64,000 nucleotides of DNA from Candidatus Bathyarchaeota archaeon (GTDB lineage: Archaea > Thermoproteota > Bathyarchaeia > Bathyarchaeales > Bathycorpusculaceae): assembly GCA_963741005.1 (NCBI GenBank), contig CAVUGQ010000005.1, positions 271,965 to 335,964 of the forward strand, written 5' to 3'. A program made the position numbers and the translations under genes. Positions 35,811 through 57,618 of the stretch are shown in pieces (position 1 is the first letter of the stretch; each line of letters begins with the position of its first letter). Under the pieces are notes generated by a model that was not told where the DNA came from, did no database searches, and was given only the letters and a program-made list of their open reading frames with translations.

Positions 35811-36092
35811 TTCGCTTGAGCCTCACCCCTTCTATAATACACTTTTACTCTTAAAACTTGACTTAGAGCTAATCCAGAAGCAGGTTCCCAAAGCCAAAAA
35901 AAGTGACCCTGACTGCATTGCCTTAAGGCAGTATCTTGGTAACCTTGCCCGCAAAACAGTTGTTGAACGAGTGTTTGATGGATAGATTAGTTTCTGATAA
36001 AGGGTAAATTCATGAAGTCCCAGAAACTTGATTTATGCTTAGTCGAGAAGTGTTGACCAAAAAACCCTTTTAGGCGAAATAACCTATCATGA

Positions 36093-36563
36093 TTGGTGTT
36101 TATGAAGAGAACAGCGTTAGCATTAACGCTTATTGTGTTAATCCTAATCACAGCAGTAGTAGCTGGGATTCTATTGGTTGATTTAGCAGGGGATAAAGAA
36201 GCAGAAATCAAATTGTACACTTATCCTGTTTCAGTTGGAGAGAAGACCTACATTATAACTGTTAGCACTAATTGGACTTCATCACCAAAGGTTGAGTTAT
36301 CACTTGAAACTGACCCATTGAAGTATGTTTCAGTTGTCTTTTCAGATTGGAGTGAAGAAACTGTCTTCTTTAATGTAACTATTCCAACTGACTTGCTTTG
36401 GGGAAATATCTCTCTGGTATGGAAATACTATGAGCAAAGTCCTGACCGATATACTCTATCTAATAATGGAACACATAATTCTGTAGCGATGAATTGCATA
36501 ATCAAACCTTACTTTTCGGGGATGGGTTATTTTATGATACGTGGAACAGAAGGAGCTTGGTGA
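36093..36563 (+). CDS. N-terminally anchored secreted protein
   Basis: TALALTLIVLILITAVVAGILLV. Confidence 0.45.
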   Translation: MVFMKRTALALTLIVLILITAVVAGILLVDLAGDKEAEIKLYTYPVSVGEKTYIITVSTNWTSSPKVELSLETDPLKYVSVVFSDWSEETVFFNVTIPTDLLWGNISLVWKYYEQSPDRYTLSNNGTHNSVAMNCIIKPYFSGMGYFMIRGTEGAW

Positions 36564-36646
36564 GTGATGGTTGTTTTCTTAGCGCTTGAGATTAAGGCAG
36601 GGTTAGTGAAGAAATCTTTATTGGAGACGATTCCTAATAGTAAAGT

Positions 36647-37715
36647 ATGAGAAAAAGCCTCGCTTCACTGCTGATTCTTCTGTTCTTAACCTCTTTGGTT
36701 GCTTTGCCATCTGCTACAGTGAAGGCTGAATCTAAAACAATAGTCGTACCAGACGATTCTCCCACTATTCAGGAAGCCATCAACGCTGCCGACGCTGGAG
36801 ACACAATATTCGTTAAGAGAGGCACTTATGTGGAAAATCCAGTGGTTAACAAATCGGTCTCATTGATTGGAGAGGACAGGGATTCAACCGTTATTGATGT
36901 GACGGCAGGGTTAAAGGTGCAAAGCAACAACGTGACCATAGCAGGCTTAACTATTTTATGACGGGTATGACGGGATATCATTAGCTACAAACTACTGCAA
37001 TATTTCAGGAAACAAGATTACAAATACAACTCATGGGATAGTAGTATTCGGTTACGAGAATTATATATCAGGAAACATTTTTGAATCAATCGGGCTTTCA
37101 TCAGCAATCCAACTGAACTTTGCAAACAGGAATTTGATAAATAATAACTATATTGACTCATGTGTTGAGGGAATTCAGATTTGGCAAAACAGCAATAACA
37201 ACACAGTTGCAGAAAACACTATCACTAACATTAAAGCTACAGCCATTGGTTTTCAGTACTCAAACTATAATAAAATAACTGGAAATAATATTTCCTATTC
37301 AGACCTTGGAACAGCAATCTATGGCTCTAGCTGGAACACCATATCTAACAACAACTACTTTTATAATAAAGTCCAGTTTGGAGCTAATGAATGGTACTAC
37401 CTAACTTGGGGAGGTAATCGTTCTATAAACACCATTAATGAAAACTATTGGAGCGACTACAACGGAACGGATGCCAATAGAGATGGCATCGGTGATACAC
37501 CCTACATCATAGACGCATACAACCAAGATAATAATCCAATTATGTTGCCGATTTTGGTTACATTGCCCAATTCTGGGCCAACTTCATCTCCAACTTCTTC
37601 ACCTTCAATCCCAGAGTTCCCATCATGGATAATTCTATCGATGCTTAGCATAATAGTGGCAATTGTTGGCTTGTTGGTTTACTTCAAGAAACGCAAATCC
37701 TATTATGGCAAATAG
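36647..37715 (+). pseudogene. Right-handed beta-helix (NosD/pectate-lyase-like repeats) surface protein with PEF-CTERM tail, disrupted by a +1 frameshift at about 36950-36962 within a tandem TATGACGGG TATGACGGG
   Basis: ORF 36647..36961 (signal plus first beta-helix turns) and an open frame 36951..37715 (NNTVAENTITNIKATAIGF... IPEFPSWIILSMLSIIVAIVGLLVYFKKRK). Confidence 0.6.
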
Positions 37716-38836
37716 ATAGTTCCATTCCAAAAGAAGTATTGCTTGTAGGTATTATCCAATTTTAATCCATCATCATAAATAATATCCAGCTTGGAACCGT
37801 ATTCCTCAAGCAAAGCCCCTAAATTCTCGCTGATCTCTAAAGATAATTCATCGTTCTCCCACACCCCCCAAATCTTATCCTCGGGACCCCTAAAGCCATA
37901 ACCATAATCCTTAGGAAGAACAAAAGCAACCCTGCCAGCCAACAAATCAGCGGATCTAGGATGATCCTTAGTGTATTGCCAAAACCTCTCCAAAGCATCC
38001 AAATGCTCTTGTGAAAGAGTACTCTGGGTGTAGGTCTCATCGCTATCAAACACTAAGGCATATTTTGCTCCATTCTCGTAAGCTAAAACAAGATCGTTAA
38101 ATAACTCTTGATCCGACCCCAGATATGGAGGCTTAGTATAAGTCCAAGTAACTATGACTCCCCAATCCTTATTATGAACAGTGGCGGCGCCTCTGCAAAG
38201 AGCAATGTTTAGCTGTCTGCTATAGTTCCAGCCCAGTTGAGCCAGCACAACGTCGTATCCGCCATTATAATCAAACCAGTAAAGTGCATAGTCAGAGGTA
38301 AACAGTCTAAAAGATGAAGGAACAATAAATGAGTATGAATTGTTTAGGTAAAATTCAGCATTTAGTCTATGGCGAATATTGTTGATGAATTGGGATGCAG
38401 CATCCGAATAGTTATCGGCGCTAAAGACGCTTCGATAATCATCTAAATCTAGTTGGCGGCCTCCATGCTCATCATCATAATAGACACCAGCAAAGCCATC
38501 GTTGTAGGAAGCTACAGACTCATTAATTGACACTAGTCTATTTGCACCTGCAGCAAAAACAACGTACGATAAATCCTTGCCTTTTAAGTAGAGAATTGTT
38601 TGGTTGAGTTTGTATTGGTCGTATGTTATTCCTGTGCTTCCAATAATTACTATGTTTGTATAATCTGCTATTTGATCAACTAAGTTTGTGATTTTGTCAA
38701 GATCGTCATAAGCTACATCTACTCCAACATAGAATTCCTCAAACTCGTTCTCATATTTGATATTGAAAAAACTGACGACTAAAAGTGATGAAAGTAGAAT
38801 GCAAGCTATGATGGCAAATGTATGCTTGGAATTCAT
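37703..38836 (-). CDS. N-terminally anchored secreted protein, possibly a TIM-barrel glycosidase-like enzyme
   Basis: 377 aa. Signal/TM FAIIACILLSSLLVVSFF. Catalytic assignment is weak. Confidence 0.3.
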   Translation of the reverse strand: MNSKHTFAIIACILLSSLLVVSFFNIKYENEFEEFYVGVDVAYDDLDKITNLVDQIADYTNIVIIGSTGITYDQYKLNQTILYLKGKDLSYVVFAAGANRLVSINESVASYNDGFAGVYYDDEHGGRQLDLDDYRSVFSADNYSDAASQFINNIRHRLNAEFYLNNSYSFIVPSSFRLFTSDYALYWFDYNGGYDVVLAQLGWNYSRQLNIALCRGAATVHNKDWGVIVTWTYTKPPYLGSDQELFNDLVLAYENGAKYALVFDSDETYTQSTLSQEHLDALERFWQYTKDHPRSADLLAGRVAFVLPKDYGYGFRGPEDKIWGVWENDELSLEISENLGALLEEYGSKLDIIYDDGLKLDNTYKQYFFWNGTIYLP

Positions 38837-39307: not shown

Positions 39308-39700
39308 ATGAGTGCAAGTCCCGTATTGGGTAGAAATGCTCGCTTGCTGAAAAGTGGCGTAGCGATTGGTTATGGCAAAAACATTATTGTTGGAGCAACT
39401 GCCGAAGTCATAAAAGTGTATAGCATGGATTCTTTGACGCCTGCTGTTACTGGCTCTGGGAAACAATCTTTCACGTGGAGTATGGATCGGTTGTTTACTG
39501 ATGAAACATACCTTGCTTTGCTTATGGCTGGAACACAGTTTGATTTGATTTTTGCGCCAGAAGGCACACCACTGGATAGTTCAGCGTATGAAACTTGGAA
39601 AAACTGTACCATACTGAAGTGTGAGCGCAGCGCAAGTGAAGACGGTGGTTTGCTCGAAAAGATCAGCGGCGAAGCGGACGACGTAGAGTTCCCAGCGTAG
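39308..39700 (+). CDS. Major tail protein (putative)
   Basis: 130 aa. First gene of the tail module, before chaperone and TMP. Confidence 0.4.
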   Translation: MSASPVLGRNARLLKSGVAIGYGKNIIVGATAEVIKVYSMDSLTPAVTGSGKQSFTWSMDRLFTDETYLALLMAGTQFDLIFAPEGTPLDSSAYETWKNCTILKCERSASEDGGLLEKISGEADDVEFPA

Positions 39701-39714: not shown

Positions 39715-40188
39715 ATGCCTAAAAAAGAGTCTATTTCCCCTAATTCTTTGGAAGTGTTGAATACTCCTGAGAACAAGGAGCGTTTTGCTAAATTTCAAGC
39801 GCAAGCTGACGCATGCGACCAGAAAAAGGTTGATGCCGCTAAAATCTTTGATCCCGTAGCCTTGCTTAAACGAGCTTCTACGATTCATGAGTTTAATCAT
39901 CCAACTCTTGGCATAGTCAGGTTTGGGGAGTTGGTTTTAAACGACTCTGCGATCCTTGAGAAATGCATAACGCCCGCTGCAAAAACAGCAATGACTCTGT
40001 ACTTGATGCTTAAGAAAGCGCATCCGGGTCTCCCCGAATATACACCTGAAAACATCCTTGATTTCTACAATATGTTTCCGTTAGCTGAAGGTGCAGCTCT
40101 TTTGCAATTCATTAGTGAGCAACCCAGTTTTTTACCCAAAAAAAGCTCGAAGAATGGATTAGCGTCCACGGTGGAGCCCAAGACTTAG
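39715..40188 (+). CDS. Tail assembly chaperone-like protein
   Basis: 157 aa. Between major tail protein and TMP. Confidence 0.35.
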   Translation: MPKKESISPNSLEVLNTPENKERFAKFQAQADACDQKKVDAAKIFDPVALLKRASTIHEFNHPTLGIVRFGELVLNDSAILEKCITPAAKTAMTLYLMLKKAHPGLPEYTPENILDFYNMFPLAEGAALLQFISEQPSFLPKKSSKNGLASTVEPKT

Positions 40189-40306: not shown

Positions 40307-41632
40307 GTGAAGGATTTAGAAATTAGGTTAACTGCTGTTGATCAGGCAAGTGCTACAGTAGCGGAAGCTTCAAAACGTATCAGTGATAGTTTACGTGAGG
40401 TTTCTGATAGCCAAAATGGTTTAGCTGCGGCAACACAGCAAACTGTAGCTCCGTTAACTCAGGAAGAGCAAGTTCAGCTTGAAACAGCTGGCACAGCTCT
40501 TCAGTTAAAGACAGCTCAACAGGATCTTAGTGATGCTCAAAACAACCTTAATGTTGCTATACGAGGGTATGGAACTAACAGTGCGGAAGCTGCAGCTGCT
40601 CTTAGAGATCTAAATTCTGTTCAATCAAACGTTTCATCGTTGCAGGCTCAAGTGGGAGCGACTACGAAGCAGAATACGGTTTCTATGCGTGATTTTACCA
40701 CGGGGATCTCTGGGGTTGCGACGGCTTCTTTTAGTTTGTATGGTGCCTATGACCGAATTAATGCAGCGGAGATTAGTCTTGACCGTTCTAACTTGATGGT
40801 TAAGTCAAGTACTAAGTCGGTTGAGGATGCGCAGCGGACTCTTTCTAAAGCGATTTCTGAGCATGGCGTTAGTAGTCAGGAGGCGAAGTCTGCTTCTGAT
40901 GCGTTAAGTATTGCTCAGGATCGGTTGGCTTTGGCGGATGAGCGTGCCCTGCAAGCTCAGGAAAACGTGAATAAGTCAATTATGTCGGCTGCCTTGCAGA
41001 TTATCCCGACGTCAATAACTATGGTTGATAGTTTAAGTCGTGCCTGGAAGAATTTTCCTGACGTCAGCGCATTGTTGACCAAGATTAGTAGTGGTGTTGC
41101 TAACGTGGGGATCTCGGCTAAGACTGCGGCTATTGGGGTTGCGGCTTTTATGGGCGGTTTCTTAATTGCTGATACTTTGTTGAGTGCTATTCCTGAGGAT
41201 ATGCGTCAGATCGCTGGAGTATTAACTGCTTCTATTGCTGCGATTGTGGCTGCTACGATTGCGTGGATGGCTTTTCAGGGAACTATGACGATGGGTGTTG
41301 CTGTCCCCATTATTCTCGCGGCAGTTGGCATCGGGATTGCTGGAGTGAAAGCCGCTGTTGCTATGGCTGAAGGCGGCGTTGTTGAACGTCCAACTTATGC
41401 GTTAATCGGTGAAGCTGGTCCAGAAATCGTTATGCCTCTTAGCCAATATGAATCAATGCATCCTCAGCACTCAGCAACGGTGACAAGCAATAACTCACCC
41501 CAGGAAGTCACCGTAATTAATCTTACACAGAACCTTTACGGCGACATCAAAAGTGAAGCAGATGAGGATAGAGTTGCTCAGAAAGCGGTTGAGTTGCTCG
41601 ATTCGCGTAGTGTGCATAGGAGAAATATGTAG
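40307..41632 (+). CDS. Tail tape measure protein
   Basis: N-terminal A/Q/S-rich coiled coil, central TM helices, 441 aa. Confidence 0.7.
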   Translation: MKDLEIRLTAVDQASATVAEASKRISDSLREVSDSQNGLAAATQQTVAPLTQEEQVQLETAGTALQLKTAQQDLSDAQNNLNVAIRGYGTNSAEAAAALRDLNSVQSNVSSLQAQVGATTKQNTVSMRDFTTGISGVATASFSLYGAYDRINAAEISLDRSNLMVKSSTKSVEDAQRTLSKAISEHGVSSQEAKSASDALSIAQDRLALADERALQAQENVNKSIMSAALQIIPTSITMVDSLSRAWKNFPDVSALLTKISSGVANVGISAKTAAIGVAAFMGGFLIADTLLSAIPEDMRQIAGVLTASIAAIVAATIAWMAFQGTMTMGVAVPIILAAVGIGIAGVKAAVAMAEGGVVERPTYALIGEAGPEIVMPLSQYESMHPQHSATVTSNNSPQEVTVINLTQNLYGDIKSEADEDRVAQKAVELLDSRSVHRRNM

Positions 41633-41985
41633 TGACGTGGACTATTGAATCAGTAACTATTCCAGTGCCCTCAAAATGTAGAATCACTTGCAGAGCAAAC
41701 AAAGAAGAAATGCCTGTTTCCGGCGATTACCCTGCGCAGACAGTTGACGGTCTAAAATTAATGGTTGTGCTTGAAGGCGCGTTTGTAGGTGTTATGGCAA
41801 CTGTGTATGCTGCAACTGTTGCTCCGCTTCTATTGTTGGTTGGCACGCAAGTTACACTTTCAGCTGACGGCGTATTGGATGGTGAATGGATGCTTGATGA
41901 CTTCATACCCAACCGTGACAACCCTTCACTGTGGACGTACACCATGACATTGAGCAAAGGAAGCTCTAACTACACTTTTGGGTGA
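41632..41985 (+). CDS. Distal tail/baseplate small protein
   Basis: Coupled between TMP and the tail fiber gene. Confidence 0.3.
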   Translation: MTWTIESVTIPVPSKCRITCRANKEEMPVSGDYPAQTVDGLKLMVVLEGAFVGVMATVYAATVAPLLLLVGTQVTLSADGVLDGEWMLDDFIPNRDNPSLWTYTMTLSKGSSNYTFG

Positions 41986-44318
41986 GCGTTATGGGTAAAT
42001 GGGAAATTGAATACTACGATGACGGCGAAAGTGGCTTCATGCCGTTTTTGCCCTCTGAGATTGATCAAATTTATTTTGAGCATGAAGGCGAACCCTACGC
42101 AACCTTCTACATCAATAACACGACTGCAAATCAGACTTTGATTCAACAGGATCTCCTAGTCAACATCTACTTTGACAGCGTGCTGCAGTTCACTGGAATA
42201 CTGCAGGGTGGAGATCTTGAAGCTAAACCTACAAGGATTCTTGTCACAGTAGTCGATGATTTATTCATTACGCTTGATAAAGCAACTCCAATATCAGGTG
42301 CGTTTTCTGAGCGTCACGGTGCAAAAGCGATTCTTGACGTGATTCTTGCCGGTACAGGGTACACTTCTCATGCAAGCGTGCCGACAACTGTGATTCCTGT
42401 TGTTTTCTACCATGCGAACCGCTTAGACTGCATGGCTTTTCTACGCAAAGCACTAAACATGGATTTTTGGCATGAAGGTACAGTGGTTCATTTTGGCGCT
42501 GAAGGTGACACTGTAACTCTAACCCCTGCAGCAACTGACCTAACTATTTCTAAACGTGCCCTTAGCCGCAGAAAACAATATGACAAAGTTGAGGTGCGAG
42601 GTGTAGATGGTTATGGCTATCACATTATTGGAACTGCAGGCACCGGCTCAAAGGTGAAAGTAATCAATGAAACAGAGGTTGCAGACGCAACAACCTTGAA
42701 CACTATTGCTGCACGCAAACTTGCAGATTTAACCACTGACTCTGCAGGATTGCCAATCAGCGTGCCTATTTGGATTGGAAAAAGCTATGCTCTTGGGAAC
42801 AACGTTACAATTGTTGCACCACGCTATCTATTAAATGGCACTTACAAAATTAAGCAGTTGACTAAGACAAAAACTAAAGTCAGCATGCAACTTGACAACT
42901 TCAGAAAACCACTTGATGCAACAGTTGATGAACTCAAAAATTGGGAAGATCGCGGCATCTATGTACCTGGATCTACGTCTTGGAGTTTGAATCTGCAGGG
43001 GTTGATCGGGCTATTCCATTTGAATGAAGGTGAAGGCACTGATGCTAAGAACAAAGCGCCTGTTGATGCTCCTATTGACGGCGTGATCACTGATGGCAGC
43101 TGGGCAGATGGTCCTGTAACAAAAATACTTGAATTTAATGGTTCAAGTTCAATGGTTAGTTTGGGAGATGCAAGTAAATCTGGAATTAGCCTTACTGGCA
43201 AATTAAGTTTTGGTGGGTGGTTTAGTCCTTCAGCCGCAGATGCAACAGAAAGAAATGTGTGTCATAAAAGTGGTCAATTTGGTTTGCATTATCACTCAAA
43301 CACAGGAGTAGTCACTGCAACTCTAACTATAGGCACAACGGTGTATAGTTTTGATACAGATGCAGGTGTGGCAACTGTTGGTGCACGATTGTTTGTCATG
43401 GTAACCTACGACGGCGCTCATGTGCGCATGTACGTGAATGGTTATCTGCACAAAGAATGGACTCAAACAGGTAACCCTGATTCATCTGCCAATACAGTGT
43501 ATCTTGGCGTTTTCTTGCAGGGTGTTTTAGCTGAAGTCATGCTTTGGCAGCGAGCGTTGGTTGATCAGGAGGTGCTTGAGCTCTACTTTTTTCCCCTGCT
43601 ACGAGTTGTAGGCGGCAGCGGCGATGGCGGTGAGCCTGAACCTCCAGAGCAAAACGCCCTAAACAAAAGCGGCGTGGCAACATCACTAGCGGAAACCCAA
43701 TCTGCCTATCAAATATCAGAGGAGCTTGAAGTCATCAATGATCCAGGCTGCATGGAAACCATAGCTGAATCTATTGTTGTTGCCAAAGGGTCAACTATGC
43801 AGTCCATTAGCGAGGACATCGAGGTCACTCTCAATCCTCCTGACTGGACGCTCAACATCGGGGTTTCGCCCCCGCTTGTAGGACGCTCCATGTCCCCATC
43901 TGAAGGCGCCAACGGTGTACCAAGCGGATTGTCCCAAGTGGTGAGATGCACCGAAGCTCAATATTGGGCTGTTAAGAGTTGGATGGTGAACCACAATTCA
44001 GTCGCCGGCACAGATTTCAACGGATACTCTGAGGTCACTGTGGGACCTTACCTTGGCGGCTTGACAGCCGAAGCGATCGTCATAATCTACGCTGGCTGGG
44101 AGCTTTCTGTAAGCGGATCAACCAACAACGGTACCGATCAGATTCCTTACGATGAGAACAGCATGAGCTACACCCGCAGAGCCTACGACTCAGACGTTGA
44201 GGTTTACGATGGAGCATACCTCGACGGCATTAGGAAGACCACTTCCGCTTCGTATGCAGCCCCAGCCCAAGACGCCAACACCAGTCACACCTTAGAGTTT
44301 AAGTTCCACCCCAAGTAG
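41982..44318 (+). CDS. Tail fiber/baseplate protein with LamG (concanavalin-like lectin) domain
   Basis: LamG_3-like segment LSFGGWFSPS...ARLFVMVTYDGAHVRMYVNGYLH...VYLGVF...MLWQRAL. 778 aa. Confidence 0.65.
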   Translation: MSVMGKWEIEYYDDGESGFMPFLPSEIDQIYFEHEGEPYATFYINNTTANQTLIQQDLLVNIYFDSVLQFTGILQGGDLEAKPTRILVTVVDDLFITLDKATPISGAFSERHGAKAILDVILAGTGYTSHASVPTTVIPVVFYHANRLDCMAFLRKALNMDFWHEGTVVHFGAEGDTVTLTPAATDLTISKRALSRRKQYDKVEVRGVDGYGYHIIGTAGTGSKVKVINETEVADATTLNTIAARKLADLTTDSAGLPISVPIWIGKSYALGNNVTIVAPRYLLNGTYKIKQLTKTKTKVSMQLDNFRKPLDATVDELKNWEDRGIYVPGSTSWSLNLQGLIGLFHLNEGEGTDAKNKAPVDAPIDGVITDGSWADGPVTKILEFNGSSSMVSLGDASKSGISLTGKLSFGGWFSPSAADATERNVCHKSGQFGLHYHSNTGVVTATLTIGTTVYSFDTDAGVATVGARLFVMVTYDGAHVRMYVNGYLHKEWTQTGNPDSSANTVYLGVFLQGVLAEVMLWQRALVDQEVLELYFFPLLRVVGGSGDGGEPEPPEQNALNKSGVATSLAETQSAYQISEELEVINDPGCMETIAESIVVAKGSTMQSISEDIEVTLNPPDWTLNIGVSPPLVGRSMSPSEGANGVPSGLSQVVRCTEAQYWAVKSWMVNHNSVAGTDFNGYSEVTVGPYLGGLTAEAIVIIYAGWELSVSGSTNNGTDQIPYDENSMSYTRRAYDSDVEVYDGAYLDGIRKTTSASYAAPAQDANTSHTLEFKFHPK

Positions 44319-44328
44319 GTGAAAAAAG

Positions 44329-45030
44329 ATGGAAAGCATTACAAACGGAGTAAAAGAAATCGATTTCCAGAGCAGGTCATGGCGTGACCAACTCAGGGGC
44401 GCCGCCTTCAGCCAGAAACTATCCATCAAGATAGCAAAGGCTCGCATCGCCGAAGCACAAAGAAACCGCCTGCGCTTCCCAGAGTTGGGGATGGTAGCCG
44501 CCCTCAACCGCGAGGGCGTCATAAAGGAGGTCGGGTTCAACAGTGAAGGCGATTTATTTCTTGATAACTTTGGTCAATGGCTCGCTGGCATCGTAGTGTG
44601 CAAGAGCAATCAAGTAAAAGTTCTCAAGGACATTACTGGAACCAATCGCACCCTCCGATTTACCCACATAGGCGACGACAATCGATGGAATAAACAAATC
44701 AACGCTACACCTGGAATGTATTTTCAGCTTGGGAGCGGTACAACAGCTCCAGCAAGGTCAAACTATTGCATCGAAACCGCCTTTGCAGGCGCCCCCGAAA
44801 ACGCCAAATTCGAGGCGAGTTGGGGAATGCACACTAGCGGGTTTTGCGTGAATGCTGGCGCCATATCAGCCGGCGGAAGTGGCACCGTCAACGAGTCGAT
44901 TGCTATAACATATTGGGCTACTGACCTCAATAATGAGTATTTTTTCGCTATTGTGAGGGATGCTATTTGCCCAGGAGTTAGCTTCGTGCCTTCTGATGTT
45001 TTGTGTGCTACCTTAACATTCACATTTTAG
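44329..45030 (+). CDS. Tail-tip paralog 1 of 4 (GDLxLDNFG / F-x-G-S-G-T-x-P-x-R-S / FHD motifs)
   Basis: Shared motifs with 45042, 45731 and 46387. Confidence 0.6.
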   Translation: MESITNGVKEIDFQSRSWRDQLRGAAFSQKLSIKIAKARIAEAQRNRLRFPELGMVAALNREGVIKEVGFNSEGDLFLDNFGQWLAGIVVCKSNQVKVLKDITGTNRTLRFTHIGDDNRWNKQINATPGMYFQLGSGTTAPARSNYCIETAFAGAPENAKFEASWGMHTSGFCVNAGAISAGGSGTVNESIAITYWATDLNNEYFFAIVRDAICPGVSFVPSDVLCATLTFTF

Positions 45031-45041
45031 GACTTGAGTAA

Positions 45042-45731
45042 ATGGTTCGATTAAACGGAGAGCATTGGAAGGAGAACTTGATAGGGGAGACGCTTGATTA
45101 CCGCCTAAAGAAAGCCATTATCGAGCGACAGTGCAGGGAGAACGCTCAACTCATCAACCACATTAACGAATCAGCTTTTGTCGTTGTCACTGACCCTAAA
45201 ACTAGAAGGATAAAGGATATTGGGTTCAACAAGCCCGATGACTTGATACTCGACAATTTCGGATTGTTCCTCAATGCTCTAATGTGTCCCCCAATCAGTT
45301 ACACTGTAGCCCATAGCTCCGCCCCGATGGTTGACACCGATGGCGTCTCCCGTACAGTTGGCGTTTATTATTTTGTCCTAAATCAAGCCTACGAGTATAA
45401 CGAAATCTCGTCCTCTTACACCTACATCAAGTTTGGCAGTGGCAGCACCACGCCGGCGAGGTCAGACTGCAATATTGAGACAGCCCTTGGAGCTTCACCA
45501 GAGAACGGTGAGATCAAGATTAGTAATGGTCAGTATGGCAGCGGTCGAGTTGCTTTTGGCGGAGCAGTAATAGCTGCCGGTTCAGATACTTTGAGTGAAG
45601 TGGGGTTTTTTATTTATTGTAAGGCACTAAGCGCCCTATGCCACTTTATGTGGTTTCATGACCTTTTGTCCACCCCTGTCTCTTTTGTGGCAGGTGATAA
45701 GTTGACTGGAGTGTACTCGGTGGGGATCTGA
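45042..45731 (+). CDS. Tail-tip paralog 2 of 4
   Basis: DIGFNKPDDLILDNFG, FGSGSTTPARSD, MWFHDLLSTPVSF. Confidence 0.6.
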   Translation: MVRLNGEHWKENLIGETLDYRLKKAIIERQCRENAQLINHINESAFVVVTDPKTRRIKDIGFNKPDDLILDNFGLFLNALMCPPISYTVAHSSAPMVDTDGVSRTVGVYYFVLNQAYEYNEISSSYTYIKFGSGSTTPARSDCNIETALGASPENGEIKISNGQYGSGRVAFGGAVIAAGSDTLSEVGFFIYCKALSALCHFMWFHDLLSTPVSFVAGDKLTGVYSVGI

Positions 45732-46390
45732 TGGTTGATATAGACTTTCTAAGCAAAAGCTGGCAGAGTCAAGTGCTTGGATCCAAAGCTGACCGACATC
45801 TCGCCCTGGAAATGGTGAAGGCTCATGCTAAATGCTCGCGTCGGGCTGGCAACTTGCTTAGCGAGTCAGTGGTGTGCTTTGTCACGGATAGGGACAGGCG
45901 GATCTCTGATGTGGGGGTGAATTGCCCTGGCGATTTGATGCTTGACAACTTTGGCAAAATATTGGCTGGGTTCTTCACTTATCAGAGGACTTCTGCAAGA
46001 TCTGTTTCACTCGCCCGCTCTGACACGGGCGCACTTTACTCGGTTAATGTGTGGTGGACTTCATACTCATCGATGACTCTTGGCGGCACCTGCATTAAGA
46101 TAGGCGGGGGCAACATGGCTCCTAACAGGGCTGATTGGAATTTGACTTCTCCCTTAGACTCTCCAGTCGGCGATTCCTATTACCCAAGCGAAGGCAGTTA
46201 TACTGGGGGCATAGTGGCTTCGATAGTGTCGATCGCCTGCCCTTTTAGCGGAGTGTGCAGAGAGGTGGGCTTGTTTTACGACCCGCAAGCCTACAACTAT
46301 GACTTCATGATCTTCCATGACCTCCTCCAGCAGCCTGTCTCATTTTCTGAGGGGCAAGCTGTCCATGTAGTGTATGGGGTGAACTTGTGA
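45731..46390 (+). CDS. Tail-tip paralog 3 of 4
   Basis: DVGVNCPGDLMLDNFG, MIFHDLLQQPVSF. Confidence 0.6.
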   Translation: MVDIDFLSKSWQSQVLGSKADRHLALEMVKAHAKCSRRAGNLLSESVVCFVTDRDRRISDVGVNCPGDLMLDNFGKILAGFFTYQRTSARSVSLARSDTGALYSVNVWWTSYSSMTLGGTCIKIGGGNMAPNRADWNLTSPLDSPVGDSYYPSEGSYTGGIVASIVSIACPFSGVCREVGLFYDPQAYNYDFMIFHDLLQQPVSFSEGQAVHVVYGVNL

Positions 46391-47085
46391 GCGAGCTAAT
46401 CAAAGCCACCGATGAACATTGGAAGGACAACCTCATCGGCTTGACCCTCGGCAATCGTCTCAATTCTGCCATTGCAGCAAGGAGGCTTAAGGAGGTAAGA
46501 GCGGAGGTTCTATGTGGCTTAACCGACTTCACTCATGTTGCCTCCATTGACCCCAAGGGAAGAATTAGGGACATTGGGTTTAGCTCTGCAGGAGATCTTA
46601 TCCTTGATAACTTTGGGCAGTTTCTGTCTGGGTGGTTTGGTTCCCCAGGGGCCTATACCAGCAACATCGTCGTCCGCACCCTCTACGATACGACCAACGC
46701 CGCCCGTTCGGTCTATGTGAGGGGTTGCGCGAGCAGCTCTAGCACTAACTGGAGCTACTGCTCTAGCAGCTCAGGCATCGTTTTCCAGTTGGGTTCAGGT
46801 TCAACAGTCCCCGTCCGCTCGGATTACAAGATCCTAACTAACCTCGGCACCGCCCCCGAAAACGCTGCCTTCCTTCCAGCTGATTCCTCTTATGCTTCTG
46901 GGTTATTAACTGAGGCTGGAGTTGTGGTTGCTGGGGGGTCTGGCACGGTGAGGGAGGCTGGTGTGTTCATGCGTGTTAGGGCTCCGAGCACTCTGTACTA
47001 TTTCATGCTGTTTCATGATCAGGTGACCCCAGTCGCCTACGTGGCTGGAGACCGCCTCACCCAGACTCTTTCATTGGGGATATAG
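46387..47085 (+). CDS. Tail-tip paralog 4 of 4
   Basis: DIGFSSAGDLILDNFG, FQLGSGSTVPVRSD, FMLFHDQVTPVAY. Confidence 0.6.
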   Translation: MSELIKATDEHWKDNLIGLTLGNRLNSAIAARRLKEVRAEVLCGLTDFTHVASIDPKGRIRDIGFSSAGDLILDNFGQFLSGWFGSPGAYTSNIVVRTLYDTTNAARSVYVRGCASSSSTNWSYCSSSSGIVFQLGSGSTVPVRSDYKILTNLGTAPENAAFLPADSSYASGLLTEAGVVVAGGSGTVREAGVFMRVRAPSTLYYFMLFHDQVTPVAYVAGDRLTQTLSLGI

Positions 47086-47098
47086 GAGGTGAACTTGA

Positions 47099-47389
47099 AT
47101 GGTAACTAAGACAGTGAAGCTCGGGGAACTCTTGAAGCTTGAGCCGTTAGTGAATGTCGACCTCAAAGGTTTGAGGGATGGCAAATGCCATATGACCTTT
47201 AGCCCAGATGAATCCACCATCCTTGAACTGGCTTTTGACAACCAGAGCACCGAGTTGCTGAAGCAGAATGTGGCAGCTATCCGCGCTATCCTAGAGGAGG
47301 AGTTGTTTTTGACGGCTTCGGTGACTAAAAAGTTAATCTTGCAGGACGTCGCTGTCACCGAGAAGCAATGGGTTGAGACCCCCATTTAA
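47099..47389 (+). CDS. Small hypothetical protein, last gene of the virus-like cluster
   Basis: 96 aa. Confidence 0.3.
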   Translation: MVTKTVKLGELLKLEPLVNVDLKGLRDGKCHMTFSPDESTILELAFDNQSTELLKQNVAAIRAILEEELFLTASVTKKLILQDVAVTEKQWVETPI

Positions 47390-47762
47390 TAGCAACCCAA
47401 TAAACCCCCTTTTTCCTGCTATAGTCAAAAAACTTGGCGTTACATCTAAACACCTAAAACACGTTTGTTATACGTTTTCTTAACCCTTGAAAGCAATGTT
47501 TTCCACGTTTAGCTAGAAAATGGGATGCTATTTTCAGTAAATAATTCAGAGAGAGGTGATGTTTATTGTTGAAAAGTGAACGAATGTTTCTAAAACGTGT
47601 ATGTGCGCTTCCAAACGATTTGGCTTCAGCTTACTTGGAAGATTTAGAGCGACTGCTAAAGAGCGTCTTTTGTTTTTTGAGCGCCTAAAACTTCAACGCA
47701 AACAGGCAGGTCCCTGAAAAAAATTAGTTGGAAAAGAAATTTTAGGGTTGGAATAGTGTGCG

Positions 47763-51365: not shown

Positions 51366-51968
51366 ATGCCAAAGAAACTTTTGGCAACAACAGTCATCTT
51401 GGCTCTAATATTTGTTTATTGCCAAGTTCCATTGTCTACTGCAAACTTTATCCCAACAAAAGCTGAAATTGATATTTTCTCTCTATTATTCTATCCAATG
51501 CCTTCAAACATGAGTGATTATGACCTGAGCATTTACCAAACCCTGTTTGCAACAGTAAGAGTCCCATTAAATGCCCCACAGAATTATCAAGAAATATACC
51601 ATATTTACTACTGTTTAGATGGTCATCCAGCAATAGAGTTTTCCAATGTAAGTAAGTCTGAAAAAGAGTGGTTTAGCGGCAGTGCTATGCATTATTTTGC
51701 AAATGCAAGTTTAAGTAATTTGGAAAAAGGGAACCATACAATAAGGGTTTATACTCAAGGAACTAAAGAAGGATTGTCAGCTTCAAGGGAGTTTACATTA
51801 AACACTTCTCTGGTTTCTATCTCTGCATCTCCAAATTCAAATCAAAATCAAGCATCTACCATCCTGTCTAATCCAATATTGCCCACTGCAATAGCTACTG
51901 TGATTGTGATAGTAGCTGTTGTTTTAGTTTCGTTGGTTTACTTTAGGAGAAGAAGGGGAAAACCATGA
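51366..51968 (+). CDS. Operon-leading surface-family protein (MPKKLLATT), C-terminal TM plus RRRRGKP
   Basis: C-terminus TVIVIVAVVLVSLVYFRRRRGKP. Confidence 0.7.
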   Translation: MPKKLLATTVILALIFVYCQVPLSTANFIPTKAEIDIFSLLFYPMPSNMSDYDLSIYQTLFATVRVPLNAPQNYQEIYHIYYCLDGHPAIEFSNVSKSEKEWFSGSAMHYFANASLSNLEKGNHTIRVYTQGTKEGLSASREFTLNTSLVSISASPNSNQNQASTILSNPILPTAIATVIVIVAVVLVSLVYFRRRRGKP

Positions 51969-52552
51969 TAAGAAAATTTGCCGTATTTGCTGTAGTGTTT
52001 GTAGTTTCAATATTGATTGGGATACAAGCAGTTGAAGTAGTAGATGCTAATCCCTTCACATTATGGAAAAAGACTGACACTCCACCAGATGCCATACCGC
52101 CAATAATTTCTGTCACCAGTCCACAAAACAGCAGTATCTATCCAAGTTCATTCAACATCAATTTTACTATAAATAAGCCGCAATATGGCGAATACGATTC
52201 CAGCATCATTAAGGTAAGCTATACAATAGATAATGTAACTGTGCGTCCTTATTCTATTTGGAGCTCTAATACTAATGGAATTCCTCAGTTTGAAACTGTC
52301 TTCAGAGAACCTTCCTTAAGTGAGGGCAACCATACTCTGATAGTTGAGGCAGAAGGGGTTGTCTACCTTCCAAACTTCCAACTCTTCTTTGAAAATAGCA
52401 CTGCAATAGTCTTCTTTACCGTCCACAATCAAACATTTGTTAACTATCTATTCAACCAAACAGTTCTTACTCCAATAGTGATAATAAGTATAATAGTTGT
52501 TGTTGCTTCTGTCACTCTGGTTTACTTTAGAAGACGGAAGGTACAACCATGA
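51965..52552 (+). CDS. Surface-family protein
   Basis: MIRKFAVFAVVFVVSILIGIQAVEVVDANP ... LVYFRRRKVQP. Confidence 0.7.
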   Translation: MIRKFAVFAVVFVVSILIGIQAVEVVDANPFTLWKKTDTPPDAIPPIISVTSPQNSSIYPSSFNINFTINKPQYGEYDSSIIKVSYTIDNVTVRPYSIWSSNTNGIPQFETVFREPSLSEGNHTLIVEAEGVVYLPNFQLFFENSTAIVFFTVHNQTFVNYLFNQTVLTPIVIISIIVVVASVTLVYFRRRKVQP

Positions 52553-53253
52553 AGAGAAGATATGCTGTATTTGCTGTAATCTTTGCAGTCTCAGTATTGA
52601 TTGGGATACAAGCAGTTGAGGTAGTCAAGGCTAATCCTATGACTTTTCCCACAAGCACCTCTCCCCCAGATAGCGTTACTCTTACCATTACCGTTGATTC
52701 TCCCAAGCAAAACACATCGTACTCTAATGGAACAATTAACGTTTGCTTCAATAAAACAATCAACAGCCCCAACGGCATTTCAACGAGTACAAATATCATC
52801 AGCACTTATCAGGGAGATTGGATGAAAGACAGCCGATGGTGCCCTTTTCCCGCTGACGTTGACCGCTTCGCAACATACCATTTCCTGCAGTATAACTTTA
52901 ACATCACCGACATACCAGTTGGCGAGCATACACTAAACATAACAGCACAAGGACAAGGCGGCTTTAACAAAAATAATACCGAATATTCTTTTACCTTTCA
53001 AAAAACAGTATCAATAAAATTCTCAATCATCAGTTCAAATCAACCCTCAGGAACATCACCACCAACAACAACTATACTCTCTTCAACCACTACGACTCCA
53101 GAACTTCCTTCGCCAACTCCAAATCAAAAAATAGGTTCTGATTATTGGATAAATCCAACAGCCCTTGCAACTACAGTTATCGTGATTGTAATAGTGGCTG
53201 TTGCTTCAATCTCACTGGTTTACTTCAAGAAGCATGGAGGTCGCAACAAATGA
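52549..53253 (+). CDS. Surface-family protein
   Basis: MKRRYAVFAVIFAVSVLIGIQAVEVVKANP ... TPELPSPTP...SLVYFKKHGGRNK. Confidence 0.7.
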   Translation: MKRRYAVFAVIFAVSVLIGIQAVEVVKANPMTFPTSTSPPDSVTLTITVDSPKQNTSYSNGTINVCFNKTINSPNGISTSTNIISTYQGDWMKDSRWCPFPADVDRFATYHFLQYNFNITDIPVGEHTLNITAQGQGGFNKNNTEYSFTFQKTVSIKFSIISSNQPSGTSPPTTTILSSTTTTPELPSPTPNQKIGSDYWINPTALATTVIVIVIVAVASISLVYFKKHGGRNK

Positions 53254-53963
53254 AGAGAGCGTCGCAGGCATTAACAATTTTATTGGCACTCTCAGTCCCA
53301 ATGTTATCTGCTAGTTTGTTTGTTCACGTTGTAAGCGCGAACCCATTTATGCCAAGCGGTTCTTGGTCCGATGAGCCTATCCCACCTTCAATCAGCATTC
53401 AATCGCCTACTGAGTCACTTAATTATTGGAATGGAAGTGATGTATGGCTTAATTTCACAGTAGCAGAACCTCTAACAAACTGGTACAGTACTGGATCAAT
53501 TAGTTATCCTGACTACTATGCAACTACTTTGGGAAATTTAACTCAGGTCTCATTTTCCATAGACGGCAAACAGGAGAACAATGTAAGCAAAATTTCTGAA
53601 TCACCGCTGAAAAGTTACAAAGTATACAATCCTATGAGTGGGTTATTGCATTTTTCAGTCAATTTGGGGCGGTTACCTGTCGGGCAGCATAAAATAAACA
53701 TTACAGCAGATGGGTCAGCGTATTATGGCAATCTAACGCATAGTGCTTTTTCTGATTCCTTTCCAATTGACACTGATAAAAGTGACAAAACCAAGTTTCT
53801 CAGTAGCTCATTGCAGAGAAACTTTGTCATAGATGATTTTGCCCCAATTACTTTCATGGCGCCTTTTCCAACTGCATCTGTGGCAATTGTTTCATCTGTT
53901 GGGGTAGCGGTTGTAGGTGTTGGTTTGTTGGTTTACTTTAAGAGAAAGAGAGGTAAACAATGA
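53252..53963 (+). CDS. Surface-family protein. Start taken at MKRASQALTILLALS; the ORF-track start at 53145 overlaps the previous gene.
   Basis: Signal plus ANP. C-terminus FPTASVAIVSSVGVAVVGVGLLVYFKRKRGKQ. Confidence 0.65.
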
Positions 53964-54655
53964 AGAGAAGGATAGCTCTTTTTGCGTTTATACTTCTAAT
54001 GTCTGTATTGATTGGGGTATTGCCAATTGGGAAAGTGGAAGCTAATCCAATTAATCAAAAAGCTGGATATGAAGTTATCACAATAGATAGCCCTCAGGGT
54101 CTGACTTTTTCATCCTCAAACAGTGTAACCTTAACTTTTAAGTGTCATACTAACTTTGTTGCCAACTACCTTTCATATTGCTATACTATGGATGGGTCTG
54201 GAGCTACCCTTTATGGTAATGTTTGGCACCAAATGCTCAAGGTTGCACAAAAAATTATCAATCAAACTGTGATATCTAATGACACTTCAAATTCTAGAAC
54301 TGAACCCTACCTGCCGTACACAGATTATGAAATTGAGATTAAAGCAATATTATCCTCTCTTAGAGATGGGAATCACAGGATGAGCCTTTACAGGGGACCT
54401 AACTATGACTTCTCTGGAGCTGTTTATTCTCCTGTCCTTAATGTTTCCTTTACTGTTAATACTTCTGCTGATGGAACAAAAAACTTGAGGCTATCCAAAA
54501 TATCGCCAGACACAACTCCAACTCCCTCTCAATCATTGCCCTCAAATTTCCCAACCCCAACAGTCTCAGAATTCCCATTAGGAGGGGTTATTTCCATCTT
54601 AGTTGTTGCTTCTGTCTCATTGGTTTACTTTAAGAGAAGTAAGGGGAAGCCATGA
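53960..54655 (+). CDS. Surface-family protein
   Basis: MKRRIALFAF... VSEFPLGGVISILVVASVSLVYFKRSKGKP. Confidence 0.7.
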   Translation: MKRRIALFAFILLMSVLIGVLPIGKVEANPINQKAGYEVITIDSPQGLTFSSSNSVTLTFKCHTNFVANYLSYCYTMDGSGATLYGNVWHQMLKVAQKIINQTVISNDTSNSRTEPYLPYTDYEIEIKAILSSLRDGNHRMSLYRGPNYDFSGAVYSPVLNVSFTVNTSADGTKNLRLSKISPDTTPTPSQSLPSNFPTPTVSEFPLGGVISILVVASVSLVYFKRSKGKP

Positions 54656-55491
54656 TTCGAAGATATGCTGTATTTGCTGTAATCTTTGCAGTCTCAGCAT
54701 TAATTGGGATACAAGCAGTTGAGGTGGCAGATGCTAATCCTACTTGGGGAACCTCTGCAACTCCAATACCTCCTATCACTGACCCTCCACAAATAATCAT
54801 AACCTCCCCAAACTCAATAGAATACGATAATCCTGTTCCTTTAAACATAACAATAATTCAACCAGACTCATGGATATCAAAAACCAATATGCATTATCCA
54901 CCAAATTCATATGTGGATAATTCGGATAGCGTAGTTGTTGGACAAAACAAATTAAAATCAATAACTTGCATTATTGATGGACAATCAATTATCCTCTGGA
55001 ATGGTACACCAATAGGTAGTTCTGCAGTTAATAATGCAGTTACCTATTATATGCCAAGAATAACACAGTTTTCAGCAATCATGAATCTAAGCAAAGGGCA
55101 ACATAACTTGCAAGTAAATGTTATTGCAGTATCAGACTATGTTACAGAAGGCATCATCCCATTTGCACAAAAGGAGTACATTATTTCAGCTAACCAAAGT
55201 ACAACATTTAATGTCAATAGTAATTCAGATTCTATCTTTTCTCCAACAATAGATAGCATAAAAAGTTCATATGCAATTTGGCAAACTTCAGACTCAACAC
55301 CTTCACCAACTCCAAACCCTACTCCAACAGCAAGCACACTCACACCAACACCTACAGGTATTGAAGTAGATACTGGTGATTCAAGAATGTTAAACCAAAC
55401 AACTCTTACTGCAATAGCTTTTGTGATTGCAATAGTGGCTGTTGCCTTTGTTTCATTGGTTTACTTTAAGAGAAGAAAGGGGAAGCCATGA
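54652..55491 (+). CDS. Surface-family protein
   Basis: MIRRYAVFAVIFAVSALIGIQAVEVADANP ... VYFKRRKGKP. Confidence 0.7.
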   Translation: MIRRYAVFAVIFAVSALIGIQAVEVADANPTWGTSATPIPPITDPPQIIITSPNSIEYDNPVPLNITIIQPDSWISKTNMHYPPNSYVDNSDSVVVGQNKLKSITCIIDGQSIILWNGTPIGSSAVNNAVTYYMPRITQFSAIMNLSKGQHNLQVNVIAVSDYVTEGIIPFAQKEYIISANQSTTFNVNSNSDSIFSPTIDSIKSSYAIWQTSDSTPSPTPNPTPTASTLTPTPTGIEVDTGDSRMLNQTTLTAIAFVIAIVAVAFVSLVYFKRRKGKP

Positions 55492-56297
55492 AGAGAAGCT
55501 ATGTTGAATTTGCAGGAGTCTTTGCTCTTCTTTTAGTTGTTGGGATTCAAGTTGTTGAGGCCCAAACGGTACAATCATCATCGGTTTTGGCTAGCCACTT
55601 TGATGTTGACTTAGTCTATGCATATACTACAGGCACCTACGCTGCAATGGCTATCGTTAATTTCACGCGTATTCCTAACCAAACGATTTCTACAGACGGC
55701 GTAAGTGATGTGTACACATTAGAGCTTTATTCCAACGGTCAAATTATAGGTAGCCGTTTAATCGGATGCACAATTGGCGATGGTCCGTCTTTGGATTATA
55801 TGATGGGTATAAGTATGAGTGTCGGTCATTTCGGTTTACAGTCAGTAAGATCTGCAGAGGATCGATTGGGGTTAACAACATGGGATATTCCTTATGATCC
55901 ACCTTATCCTAGCTTTGTTGAACCGCTAGATGTGAAGTTGATTAAAACAGGTTGGGTTGTAGTTGAGGGAAATTACACTTGGTCTAGTTTGAATCGCCAT
56001 GAAGTGATCGAGGAGGTACATCTGGTTCAGTTCCAGGACGGCTACTTATACAACAATCTTGTGCCTCAGGAACAGCTAAATGACCCAAAACATCCACCGA
56101 TACCAACTAGTCAAATTTCACCCACCCCAAGCAGTATGCCTACTTCAAATGTGTCTCCAACCCCAAAAACAGTTTCTTTACTCGCGTTAACACCTGTTTT
56201 AAAAATAGCCATAGTCATAATATCCATAGTATTAATGGCTGTCATAGGTGCAAGTTTACTGGTTTACTTTAAGAAACGCAGACGTGAAGCTTTATGA
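55488..56297 (+). CDS. Surface-family protein
   Basis: Signal plus C-terminus LLVYFKKRRREAL. Confidence 0.65.
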   Translation: MKRSYVEFAGVFALLLVVGIQVVEAQTVQSSSVLASHFDVDLVYAYTTGTYAAMAIVNFTRIPNQTISTDGVSDVYTLELYSNGQIIGSRLIGCTIGDGPSLDYMMGISMSVGHFGLQSVRSAEDRLGLTTWDIPYDPPYPSFVEPLDVKLIKTGWVVVEGNYTWSSLNRHEVIEEVHLVQFQDGYLYNNLVPQEQLNDPKHPPIPTSQISPTPSSMPTSNVSPTPKTVSLLALTPVLKIAIVIISIVLMAVIGASLLVYFKKRRREAL

Positions 56298-57145: not shown

Positions 57146-57618
57146 AGAGAAGATATGCTGTATTTGCCGTAATCTTTGCAGTCTCAATATTGATTGGGAT
57201 ACAAACAGTTGAGGTAGTGGATGCTGATCCAGTTCCTTTAGGTGGTTACCCAAAACTATCCACAGCCCCACAGGTATTAGTTTTGTCTTCAGGCAACAAA
57301 ACGTACAACACCGCCGATGTACCGTTACAATTCAATGTTAATGAATCAGAATCGCAATACAGTTATTGTTTGGATGGGCAGCCAGCAACAATTGTTAAAG
57401 GAAACAGCACTCTAACCAACCTTTCCAATGGGAACCATAACCTTACGGTCTATGCAGTTGACGCGGCAAGAAACGTTGGCACTTCAGAAACAGTCAGTTT
57501 TGAAGTAGATGTGCCCTTCCCAACCATTCAAGTCACCGTAGCTGTGGCAATACTTTCAGCTGTCGTTATCCTTTTGCCAATCCTTCTCTTCAAGAGGCGC
57601 AAGTCTAAAACTGCTTAG
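57142..57618 (+). CDS. Surface-family protein
   Basis: MKRRYAVFAVIFAVSILIGIQTVEVVDADP ... LLFKRRKSKTA. Confidence 0.7.
   Translation: MKRRYAVFAVIFAVSILIGIQTVEVVDADPVPLGGYPKLSTAPQVLVLSSGNKTYNTADVPLQFNVNESESQYSYCLDGQPATIVKGNSTLTNLSNGNHNLTVYAVDAARNVGTSETVSFEVDVPFPTIQVTVAVAILSAVVILLPILLFKRRKSKTA

Follow-up and report, generated by a model that had tools for sequence, protein, structure and literature searches.

The present analysis asks what is encoded by four adjacent genes of nearly equal size that stand immediately downstream of a LamG-domain protein in a 64,000-nucleotide stretch of DNA (the window) from Candidatus Bathyarchaeota archaeon (contig CAVUGQ010000005.1, positions 271,965 to 335,964 of the forward strand), and what it may mean that the element carrying them has four. 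The element is a siphovirus-like provirus of an uncultivated archaeon, probably a member of the Bathyarchaeia. A siphovirus-type provirus has been reported as "common in Bathyarchaeia" (PMC11697101), and no description of the tail-tip genes was found in the literature searched. The answer that we favour, with confidence somewhat above even, is that the four proteins are structural components of the tail tip with a role in host recognition, attached by their N-termini to a hub protein bearing LamG and multiplied by tandem duplication. They could be either receptor-binding proteins or peripheral baseplate proteins.

Four divergent paralogs within a tail operon

The four proteins align end to end with pairwise identities of 27-42% (BLASTP E 2e-18 to 5e-54), and Smith-Waterman comparisons against 200 shuffles give z-scores of 28-60. 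By these measures the four open reading frames (ORFs) are true paralogs, just as an earlier note on this DNA had maintained, with a likeness far beyond chance, and their gene order places them at the tail module's distal end. Only 26 alignment columns are invariant among the four. The same note had listed motif blocks common to all of them; the blocks are real, but paralogs 1, 2 and 3 each depart from them. Paralog 2 has DDLILDNFG in place of GDL, paralog 3 has IGGGNMAPNRAD in place of GSG-T/S (GGGNMAPNR), and paralog 1 has VRD in place of FHD. The AGGSGT block reads AAGSDT in paralog 2 and CPFSGV in paralog 3, the glycine-rich family motifs of the latter being degraded (GGGNM, CPFSGV). Over the N-terminal 45 alignment columns, paralog 2 pairs with paralog 4 (51%) and paralog 1 with paralog 3 (32%, each being the best partner of the other), whereas similarity outside the N-terminus forms a mosaic and not an ABAB pattern. 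The N-terminal pairing is a weak hint at an A-B-A'-B' origin of the set.

The genes are closely packed (Table 1). The hub stop codon lies 10 nt ahead of the ATG of paralog 1, the TAG of paralog 1 lies 11 nt ahead of the ATG of paralog 2, and the TAG of paralog 4 lies 13 nt ahead of the ATG of a small ORF, ORF96, while paralogs 2 and 3 overlap by 1 nt (TGATG) and paralogs 3 and 4 by 4 nt (GTGA). A GGTGA or GGAGGTGA-like motif is found a few bases 5' of most starts, weakly so at paralog 2, and these motifs are plausible ribosome-binding motifs. Given the tight junctions and the motifs ahead of the starts, translational coupling of the paralogs is plausible as well. Such coupling would not be peculiar to them, since the entire tail operon is packed as tightly and the tape measure/Dit and Dit/hub genes overlap too.

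A large family without annotation

A profile of the four paralogs retrieved 50 clusters from a collection of 5.8 billion proteins, all of them unnamed and without Pfam domains. A family hidden Markov model (HMM) built from a 43-sequence alignment, used in an exhaustive search of representatives at 50% identity, extended this to 990 clusters at E <= 1e-3 (167 at E <= 1e-30), and nearly all members measure 180-260 amino acids (aa). Searches of the four paralogs and their neighbours against Pfam and NCBIfam returned no match for the family, and its profile found none among PDB sequences. PHROGs compared with the 43 members gave marginal matches ("tail fiber" or "minor tail", E about 0.004), PHROG 4176, annotated "tail fiber protein", being matched by two members (E 0.004). 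A tblastn search of 50,697 GenBank phage records found no homologue and no cultured relative; the best match there, 63 residues of Synechococcus phages at E 0.01, is at chance level. Looking up the exact sequence of paralog 1 likewise yielded no record. As judged from these searches, the family is large, unannotated and absent from both Pfam and NCBIfam, in keeping with the earlier note, which had failed to recognise it, and homology searching disclosed no clear kinship to any known multi-copy baseplate family. Among the relatives, four are on IMG/VR viral contigs and one is in a Candidatus Bathyarchaeia metagenome-assembled genome (L007), the only one with a taxonomic label.

Although the 43 members are only about 30% identical, G136, R144, E190 and D211 (paralog 4 numbering) are invariant among them, and the DLILDNFG, GSGTTAAAR, P-E and AGGSGTxNE blocks are nearly so throughout the family. 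Indels and variability cluster at residues ~85-130 and ~191-205 and also behind the first helix, where insertions reach 24 columns, and in entire subclades arginine takes the place of the FHD histidine. Such a pattern raises the question of whether the proteins are virion-associated enzymes, in which case the Arg, Glu and Asp together with two glycine-rich loops would form a catalytic or a sugar- or ion-binding site acting on S-layer glycans, with paralogs 1 and 3 as inactive copies that serve as scaffold. The invariant residues, the near-invariant AGGSGT and the degraded motifs of paralog 3 would all be compatible with this, and tail-tip proteins of HFTV1 have been proposed to bind or degrade glycans (PMC12494034). 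We consider an enzyme unlikely nonetheless, as no enzyme family of Pfam or NCBIfam was matched and the histidine of FHD is dispensed with across whole subclades.

Position and copy number among relatives

Nine related loci (L001, L003, L005, L006, L007, L016, L027, L029 and L045) share one gene order, namely tail tube, chaperone, tape measure, Dit-position protein, hub/LamG protein and, last, the family gene or genes. One or two optional proteins of ~300 aa, some of them LamG-like, may stand between the hub/LamG protein and the family; those of L001, L016 and L029 were considered as hidden family copies and rejected, as they are not family members. In L005 and L010 a terminase gene lies ~2 kb downstream of the family, which therefore closes the tail module. 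With the exception of the L037 clade, the order in the window and in these nine loci fits that of the distal-tail receptor-binding or peripheral baseplate class of siphoviruses.

The upstream genes follow the same scheme. Orthologues of the tube protein, 66-72% identical, hold the same position in L001, L005, L006, L027, L029 and L045, an ORF in the chaperone position is kept between tube and tape measure genes in related loci, and homologues of the Dit-position protein (118-144 aa) are present in L003, L005, L007, L027, L029 and L045; the Dit-position protein had no family match and its profile no match among PDB sequences. The 778-aa protein directly upstream of the array had been called a LamG tail fiber. 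By position it is better described as a hub (Tal) with a LamG extension: its N-terminal ~350 aa are conserved in proteins of 565-841 aa at the same position in 8 loci. The hub profile found no match among PDB sequences.

Copy number proved to vary among related elements, as the earlier note had surmised, when 45 fetched loci were scanned with the family HMM. Eight loci carry one copy (L001, L003, L005, L007, L016, L027, L029 and L031), which is the common state; three carry two (L010, L033 and L035), L002 has a complete array of three, L006 and L008 have at least three in arrays that end at the contig end, the window and L045 have four, and L037 has six. The idea that copies always come in pairs, giving even numbers, was rejected, the complete array of L002 being odd. 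Copies within an array are mostly mutual nearest relatives (56-67% identity in L002, 38-57% in L037), and therefore repeated, lineage-specific duplication is indicated. The six copies of L037 (5155-9445; ~238 aa each, with 4-nt overlaps) show an ABABAB pattern of similarity. Two C-terminal family fragments were also encountered, one in L027 at 10719-10910 (profile positions 183-232) after the single intact copy and one in L001 at 15470-15565 (profile positions 211-232), ~5 kb downstream of the intact copy, and both are probably remnants of lost copies.

These data bear on whether the paralogs might work singly, as independent receptor-binding proteins. Each would then form its own homo-oligomer, most likely a trimer, at its own or an equivalent baseplate site, a virion could have up to four receptor specificities, and copy number would track host-range pressure. 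The free variation in copy number (1, 2, 3, 4 and 6), the decayed extra copy in L027 and the tendency of array members to be closest relatives through repeated duplication within lineages all suit this arrangement, as do the placement of the most variable, indel-rich segments between conserved core strands, the exchange of the genes as a module (see below) and the analogy with multi-spike phages. Against it, the four are of equal size and have no extra docking domain, they have been kept together in positional orthology and with low dN/dS in L045 and partly in L008, the degraded motifs of paralogs 1 and 3 suit subunits whose ancestral site has been lost better than they suit autonomous binders, and fused double-domain homologues are predicted to pack as one body. 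We hold four independent binders to be possible but doubtful.

Exchange of the cassette and selection on its genes

The four genes recur in L045, a 183-kb metagenomic contig, in unchanged order and with the same small ORF behind them. A single blastn segment of 4580 nt, 82.3% identical, joins the hub-paralog cassette of the window (Table 1) to L045 8505-13075, whereas the tail genes upstream show only patches of at most 69% identity over 300-400 nt and two fragments of ~30 nt. Similarity to L045 stops at 47402, where a T-rich stretch likely marks the point at which both operon and shared block end. Protein comparisons have the same form. Identity to L045 is 72% for the tube, 56% for the chaperone, 48% for the tape measure and 40% for the Dit-position protein; the hub changes from 54% at its N-terminus to 81% over residues 355-778; and paralogs 1 to 4 are 80, 90, 88 and 88% identical to orthologues in matching positions (1-1, 2-2, 3-3, 4-4). 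Synonymous divergence (dS) between window and L045 is 0.5-0.95 in the cassette, as against 2.5 (saturated) in the tube gene. Because the block is so much closer in identity and dS than the diverged genes upstream, the C-terminal two-thirds of the hub, the paralogs and ORF96 behave as one exchanged unit. Horizontal exchange of the cassette relative to the rest of the tail, in the manner of phage host-recognition modules, is evident from these comparisons, and a 4.58-kb block at 82% beside upstream patches of at most 69% fits the modular exchange that characterises the receptor-binding class. L008 is related to window positions 42990-45954 as well, at 81.9% nucleotide identity, and its orthologue of paralog 1 is 92% identical. 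Near the start of the shared cassette, the hub of L045 (7664-9990) is called as two ORFs of 311 and 353 aa, the intervening piece matching the window protein in another frame; this break could be a genuine split, or it could stem from a frameshift or from an error in sequencing.

The ratio of nonsynonymous to synonymous divergence (dN/dS) between window and L045 is 0.18 for paralog 1, 0.055 for paralog 2, 0.14 for paralog 3 and 0.11 for paralog 4, so that each paralog is under purifying selection and maintained with its own orthologue. ORF96, which had no match in Pfam, PHROGs or NCBIfam, is 85% identical to its orthologue directly after the L045 array, with dN/dS 0.16. The earlier note had suggested a cassette for diversifying host recognition, which holds insofar as the genes move as a mosaic module and is unsupported in the active sense, given the absence of repeats and the purifying selection. 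Shufflons of tail-fibre cassettes operated by invertases are familiar from Mu (Gin) and phiCh1 (int1). Direct and inverted repeats exceeding 22 nt are absent between 41900 and 47500, as is any template/variable repeat pair, the neighbouring ORFs scanned include neither a reverse transcriptase nor an invertase, and the four paralogs are all on one strand. A diversity-generating retroelement and a shufflon were both rejected, because such repeats are absent and the divergence from L045 reflects ordinary purifying selection.

Predicted structure

An AlphaFold2 model of paralog 4 as a monomer, computed with the 43-sequence alignment, has a mean predicted local distance difference test (pLDDT) score of 87.9 and a predicted template-modelling score (pTM) of 0.86. 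It begins with a short N-terminal motif, a helix (23-40) and a beta-hairpin (46-66), followed by a second helix (74-84) bearing DLILDNFG and then by about eight strands arranged as a beta-sandwich. Foldseek found nothing significant for this model in the PDB, and 19 matches at E <= 1e-3 in BFVD (best 5e-7), with template-modelling (TM) scores of ~0.3-0.5. The matches comprise uncharacterised proteins from two haloarchaeal tailed viruses, HHTV-1 and HGTV-1, and from uncultured Caudovirales, together with two annotated tail fibre proteins and several proteins of lipothrixviruses (archaeal filamentous viruses), each at E < 1e-3; tail-collar fibre proteins follow at weaker E values of about 7e-3 to 2e-2. 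We conclude with moderate confidence that the predicted fold resembles that of virion tail, baseplate or fibre proteins, those of archaeal viruses included.

The fold also speaks to the idea that the genes encode a non-structural assembly factor, be it a chaperone of tail fibres or a protein that matures the LamG hub, comparable to phage Tfa downstream of its client. Their place directly downstream of the LamG protein, and their transfer together with its C-terminal part, are what such a factor would lead one to expect. This seems very improbable to us, however, since the fold matches are virion components and not chaperones, the proteins have a size of 220-260 aa and fold as a beta-sandwich, the fused homologues with a membrane anchor point to a domain exposed on a surface, and it would be odd for a single client to need four to six different chaperones.

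Fused relatives and the question of co-assembly

Six relatives (P0178, P0180, P0170, P0339, P0340 and P0342) have two family domains in one chain. The second domain begins at the DLILDNFG helix and is without the N-terminal ~65 residues, and in P0180, P0339 and P0340 an N-terminal transmembrane helix replaces the EHW motif. The fused and transmembrane forms therefore mark the N-terminus as an exchangeable attachment device, separate from a core of ~165 residues, and suggest that the family core is displayed on a surface. It is from these homologues that we infer a division of the paralogs into anchor and head. P0178 (375 aa) is predicted by AlphaFold2 as one body with a pTM of 0.83, a value that would be unexpected for freely moving domains, so that family domains can probably pack in a fixed manner. 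By the gene-fusion argument this is indirect evidence that separately encoded paralogs may touch one another.

Fused genes that encode an N-terminal transmembrane anchor lie at L049 3833-5080, L050 2516-3715 and L047 1514-2668, surrounded by many small ORFs and with a gene for a protein of 806-968 aa after them; L049 also carries a Cas12f/TnpB-like gene. The elements may belong to a non-tailed archaeal virus.

In its strict form, co-assembly would amount to an obligate pseudo-symmetric heteromer, akin to the heteromeric tip complex that the earlier note had raised, in which a homo-oligomeric ancestor doubled into an A-B pair, this pair became A-B-A'-B' and each paralog occupies a fixed, non-equivalent place in a peripheral baseplate complex. 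The compact P0178 fusion and four or five further fused proteins are consistent with this, as are the ABABAB similarity in L037, the two N-terminal types in the window (paralogs 1 and 3 versus 2 and 4) and the erosion of motifs in paralogs 1 and 3. The overlapping starts and stops, together with the ribosome-binding motifs, agree with equimolar synthesis, and the joint conservation of all four paralogs favours co-assembly in general as well as its strict form. The complete three-copy array of L002 and the single-copy state of most relatives are difficult to accommodate, though, the similarity beyond the N-terminus is mosaic rather than ABAB, and tight packing is general in the operon. A heteromer of this obligate kind is accordingly entertained only tentatively. 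Between neighbouring paralogs that assemble together and four unrelated fibres, we lean weakly towards the former.

Comparison with known tail-tip proteins

The proteins R4T6G8 (HHTV-1) and R4TMF4 (HGTV-1), which with those of uncultured Caudovirales are the leading BFVD matches (E 2e-6 to 3e-5, probability 1.0), measure 188-215 aa, share 11-15% identity with the paralog, reach TM scores of about 0.42-0.57 and are themselves uncharacterised. The ~257-aa proteins that follow the LamG protein (gp64) or the tail module in HHTV-2 were considered as remote members and rejected, hhalign detecting no profile similarity. HFTV1 gp44 (PDB 9h4p chain BD) is a trimeric hub of 953 aa of the Mu/MuSo2 gp44 type, whereas the paralogs are free-standing proteins of ~230 aa encoded after the hub; only 121 residues align structurally between it and the paralog 4 model, at 10% identity, with an hhalign probability of 0.1%. 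The notion that the paralogs are hubs of the gp44 type (over 350 aa, multi-domain, capping the tube and binding the C-terminus of the tape measure) was rejected, as they are single-domain proteins of 219-233 aa and the place of the hub is held by the 778-aa protein. The baseplate-tail connector of HFTV1, gp41, is a pseudo-hexameric trimer that originated by duplication and fusion (PMC12494034). It sets a precedent for duplicated domains at non-equivalent places in an archaeal tail tip, and the present family likewise has both tandem and fused forms; gp41, however, lies between tube and hub while the family is encoded after the hub, and the likeness may be one of analogy.

Bacteriophages offer parallels of another kind, since a tail module that ends in duplicated receptor-binding genes is a familiar arrangement among them. 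The receptor-binding proteins of lactococcal phages, p2 ORF18 and TP901-1 BppL, are encoded last, after tape measure, Dit, Tal and optional accessory baseplate proteins, and combine a small N-terminal attachment part with a beta-sandwich head in a module exchanged by recombination. The paralogs are like them in gene position and size, but match them neither in sequence nor significantly in fold, and their conservation peaks in the core. In phage CBA120 (TSP1-4) and in the dual-spike phages K1-5 and SP6, tandem host-recognition paralogs at the end of the tail module are co-expressed; these spikes are large beta-helix depolymerases joined into a branched complex by specialised N-terminal docking domains, whereas the paralogs are four small beta-sandwich proteins of equal size and have no extra docking domain.

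Weighing the interpretation

The scheme that we favour can be put as follows. The N-terminal ~45-65 residues (EHWxDNLxG motif, helix and beta-hairpin) would dock onto the hub/LamG part, the C-terminal helix-plus-beta-sandwich core of ~165 residues would be the exposed head, and contact with the surface of the host would fall to the indel-rich segments (residues ~85-130 and ~191-205 of paralog 4). The array arose from one ancestral gene by tandem duplication, a process repeated independently in several virus lineages to give 2, 3, 4 and 6 copies. All four copies in the window are old and non-redundant, expressed together from one packed operon, and for this reason the virion most likely carries all four at its tip.

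Several observations weigh against this scheme. Firstly, no sequence homology to a characterised receptor-binding or baseplate protein was found in Pfam, PHROGs, NCBIfam, PDB or the phage records. Secondly, conservation is strongest in blocks of the core (DLILDNFG, GSGTTAAAR, AGGSGTxNE and FHD) while the N-terminus varies, whereas the classical pattern pairs a conserved N-terminus with a variable C-terminus, and the invariant R, E and D with the glycine-rich loops might just as well denote a site for catalysis or for binding an ion. Thirdly, the array of L037, which belongs to a more distant clade, adjoins no hub; it is flanked by a coiled-coil protein and by an 824-aa protein whose C-terminal part is a capsid-protein domain, and because of this different context the tail-tip position is not universal. 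Fourthly, host-like genes interrupt the morphogenesis region, so that the provirus may be decaying, rearranged or defective. Finally, the three-copy array of L002 and the remnant in L027 point to birth-and-death turnover, which tells against an obligate heteromer in particular.

A more far-reaching view can be offered only speculatively, and we regard it as improbable, though worth stating. The family may be a novel building block of the devices by which archaeal viruses recognise hosts, a single homo-oligomeric tip protein that was repeatedly made, through tandem duplication or fusion, into a pseudo-symmetric hetero-oligomer and that also serves as a membrane-anchored spike in non-tailed archaeal viruses. 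The set described here would then be A-B-A'-B', with paralogs 1 and 3 lacking the ancestral conserved site. Reuse of the core as a spike is suggested by the transmembrane-anchored fused homologues together with the lipothrixvirus fold matches.

Surroundings of the array in the window

The tail module belongs to a longer morphogenesis region (Table 1). Between the portal and the prohead-protease and capsid genes, positions 20937-29114 hold a gene for a helix-turn-helix protein and two for large PAS histidine kinases (22892-24796 and 25460-28480); this insert could be cargo, or the provirus may be rearranged or decaying. A further ~3.7 kb (35100-38836), which the syntenic loci L005 and L045 lack, separates the head-tail connector genes from the tube gene and holds beta-helix/NosD-like fragments (36647-37715) and a gene for a 377-aa membrane protein on the minus strand.

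Downstream of the paralogs, a second tandem array on the plus strand (51366-57618) comprises at least eight tightly packed or overlapping ORFs of 158-283 aa. Each product opens with a signal peptide (MKRRYAVFAVIFAVS...IGIQAVEV) and has a transmembrane helix at its C-terminus with YFKRRKGKP behind it, and many N-x-S/T sites are present; none matched NCBIfam, and from sequence they look like paralogous archaeal surface glycoproteins. Kelch-repeat proteins are encoded near both copies of the element, at 313-1179 on the minus strand of the window and at 13730-14977 on the minus strand of L045, 1 kb downstream of the array. The sole Rfam match in the window is a DUF3800-X RNA at 60049-60121 on the minus strand (53.7 bits where the gathering score is 38.2; E 7.7e-09). 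No tRNA or rRNA was found in the window, and flanking genes had no match in Pfam or NCBIfam.

Table 1. Features of the morphogenesis region and of the hub-paralog cassette (window coordinates).
Feature	Position	Strand	Size	Remarks
Large terminase	at 17379			in tailed-virus morphogenesis region
Portal	at 18626			in tailed-virus morphogenesis region
Prohead-protease-like protein	at 29358			in tailed-virus morphogenesis region
HK97/encapsulin-type capsid protein	at 31539			in tailed-virus morphogenesis region
Tail-tube-position protein	39308..39700	+	130 aa	weak match to Pfam Phage_tube_2, E 0.074
Tail-assembly-chaperone-position ORF	39715..40188	+	157 aa	by position only
Tape measure protein	40307..41632	+	441 aa	PHROG tape-measure families, best E 3.5e-05; synteny
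Small Dit-position protein	41632..41985	+	117 aa	between tape measure and hub, by position only
Hub/Tal-position protein	41982..44318	+	778 aa	Pfam Laminin_G_3 at residues 387-531, E 7.6e-13; C-terminal extension
Mosaic cassette	42835..47402	+		C-terminal two-thirds of hub, four paralogs, ORF96; from blastn
Paralog 1	44329..45030	+	233 aa	ATG start; N-terminus of IDFxSxSW type; family HMM E 5e-80
Paralog 2	45042..45731	+	229 aa	ATG start; canonical EHWKxNLIG N-terminus; family HMM E 1e-81
Paralog 3	45731..46390	+	219 aa	ATG start; most divergent; family HMM E 9e-66
Paralog 4	46387..47085	+	232 aa	GTG start; nearest to family consensus; modelled by AlphaFold2
ORF96	47099..47389	+	96 aa	last gene of cassette; GGAGGTGA motif 7 nt 5' of ATG
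T-rich stretch CCCCCTTTTTCC	47400..47425	+		3' of ORF96; read from sequence

Significance

To our knowledge, almost nothing is known of host recognition by viruses of the Bathyarchaeia or of other uncultivated archaea, and we know of no cultured relative. We rate as new the recognition of a sizeable, unannotated family in a familiar role, with a series of one to six and of fused copies; the principle itself is a known one. In these viruses the family flags where the host-recognition end of the tail module lies, and annotators of archaeal viral contigs gain from it a handle on receptor-binding modules. It travels with the LamG part of the hub as a discrete cassette, and it supplies concrete targets for structure prediction and expression. 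The series of 1, 2, 3, 4, 6 and fused copies likewise offers a natural route to the study of how homo-oligomeric parts of a virion become heteromeric. Should the building-block view be true, the family would represent a new baseplate architecture and a receptor-binding fold that spans realms of archaeal viruses.

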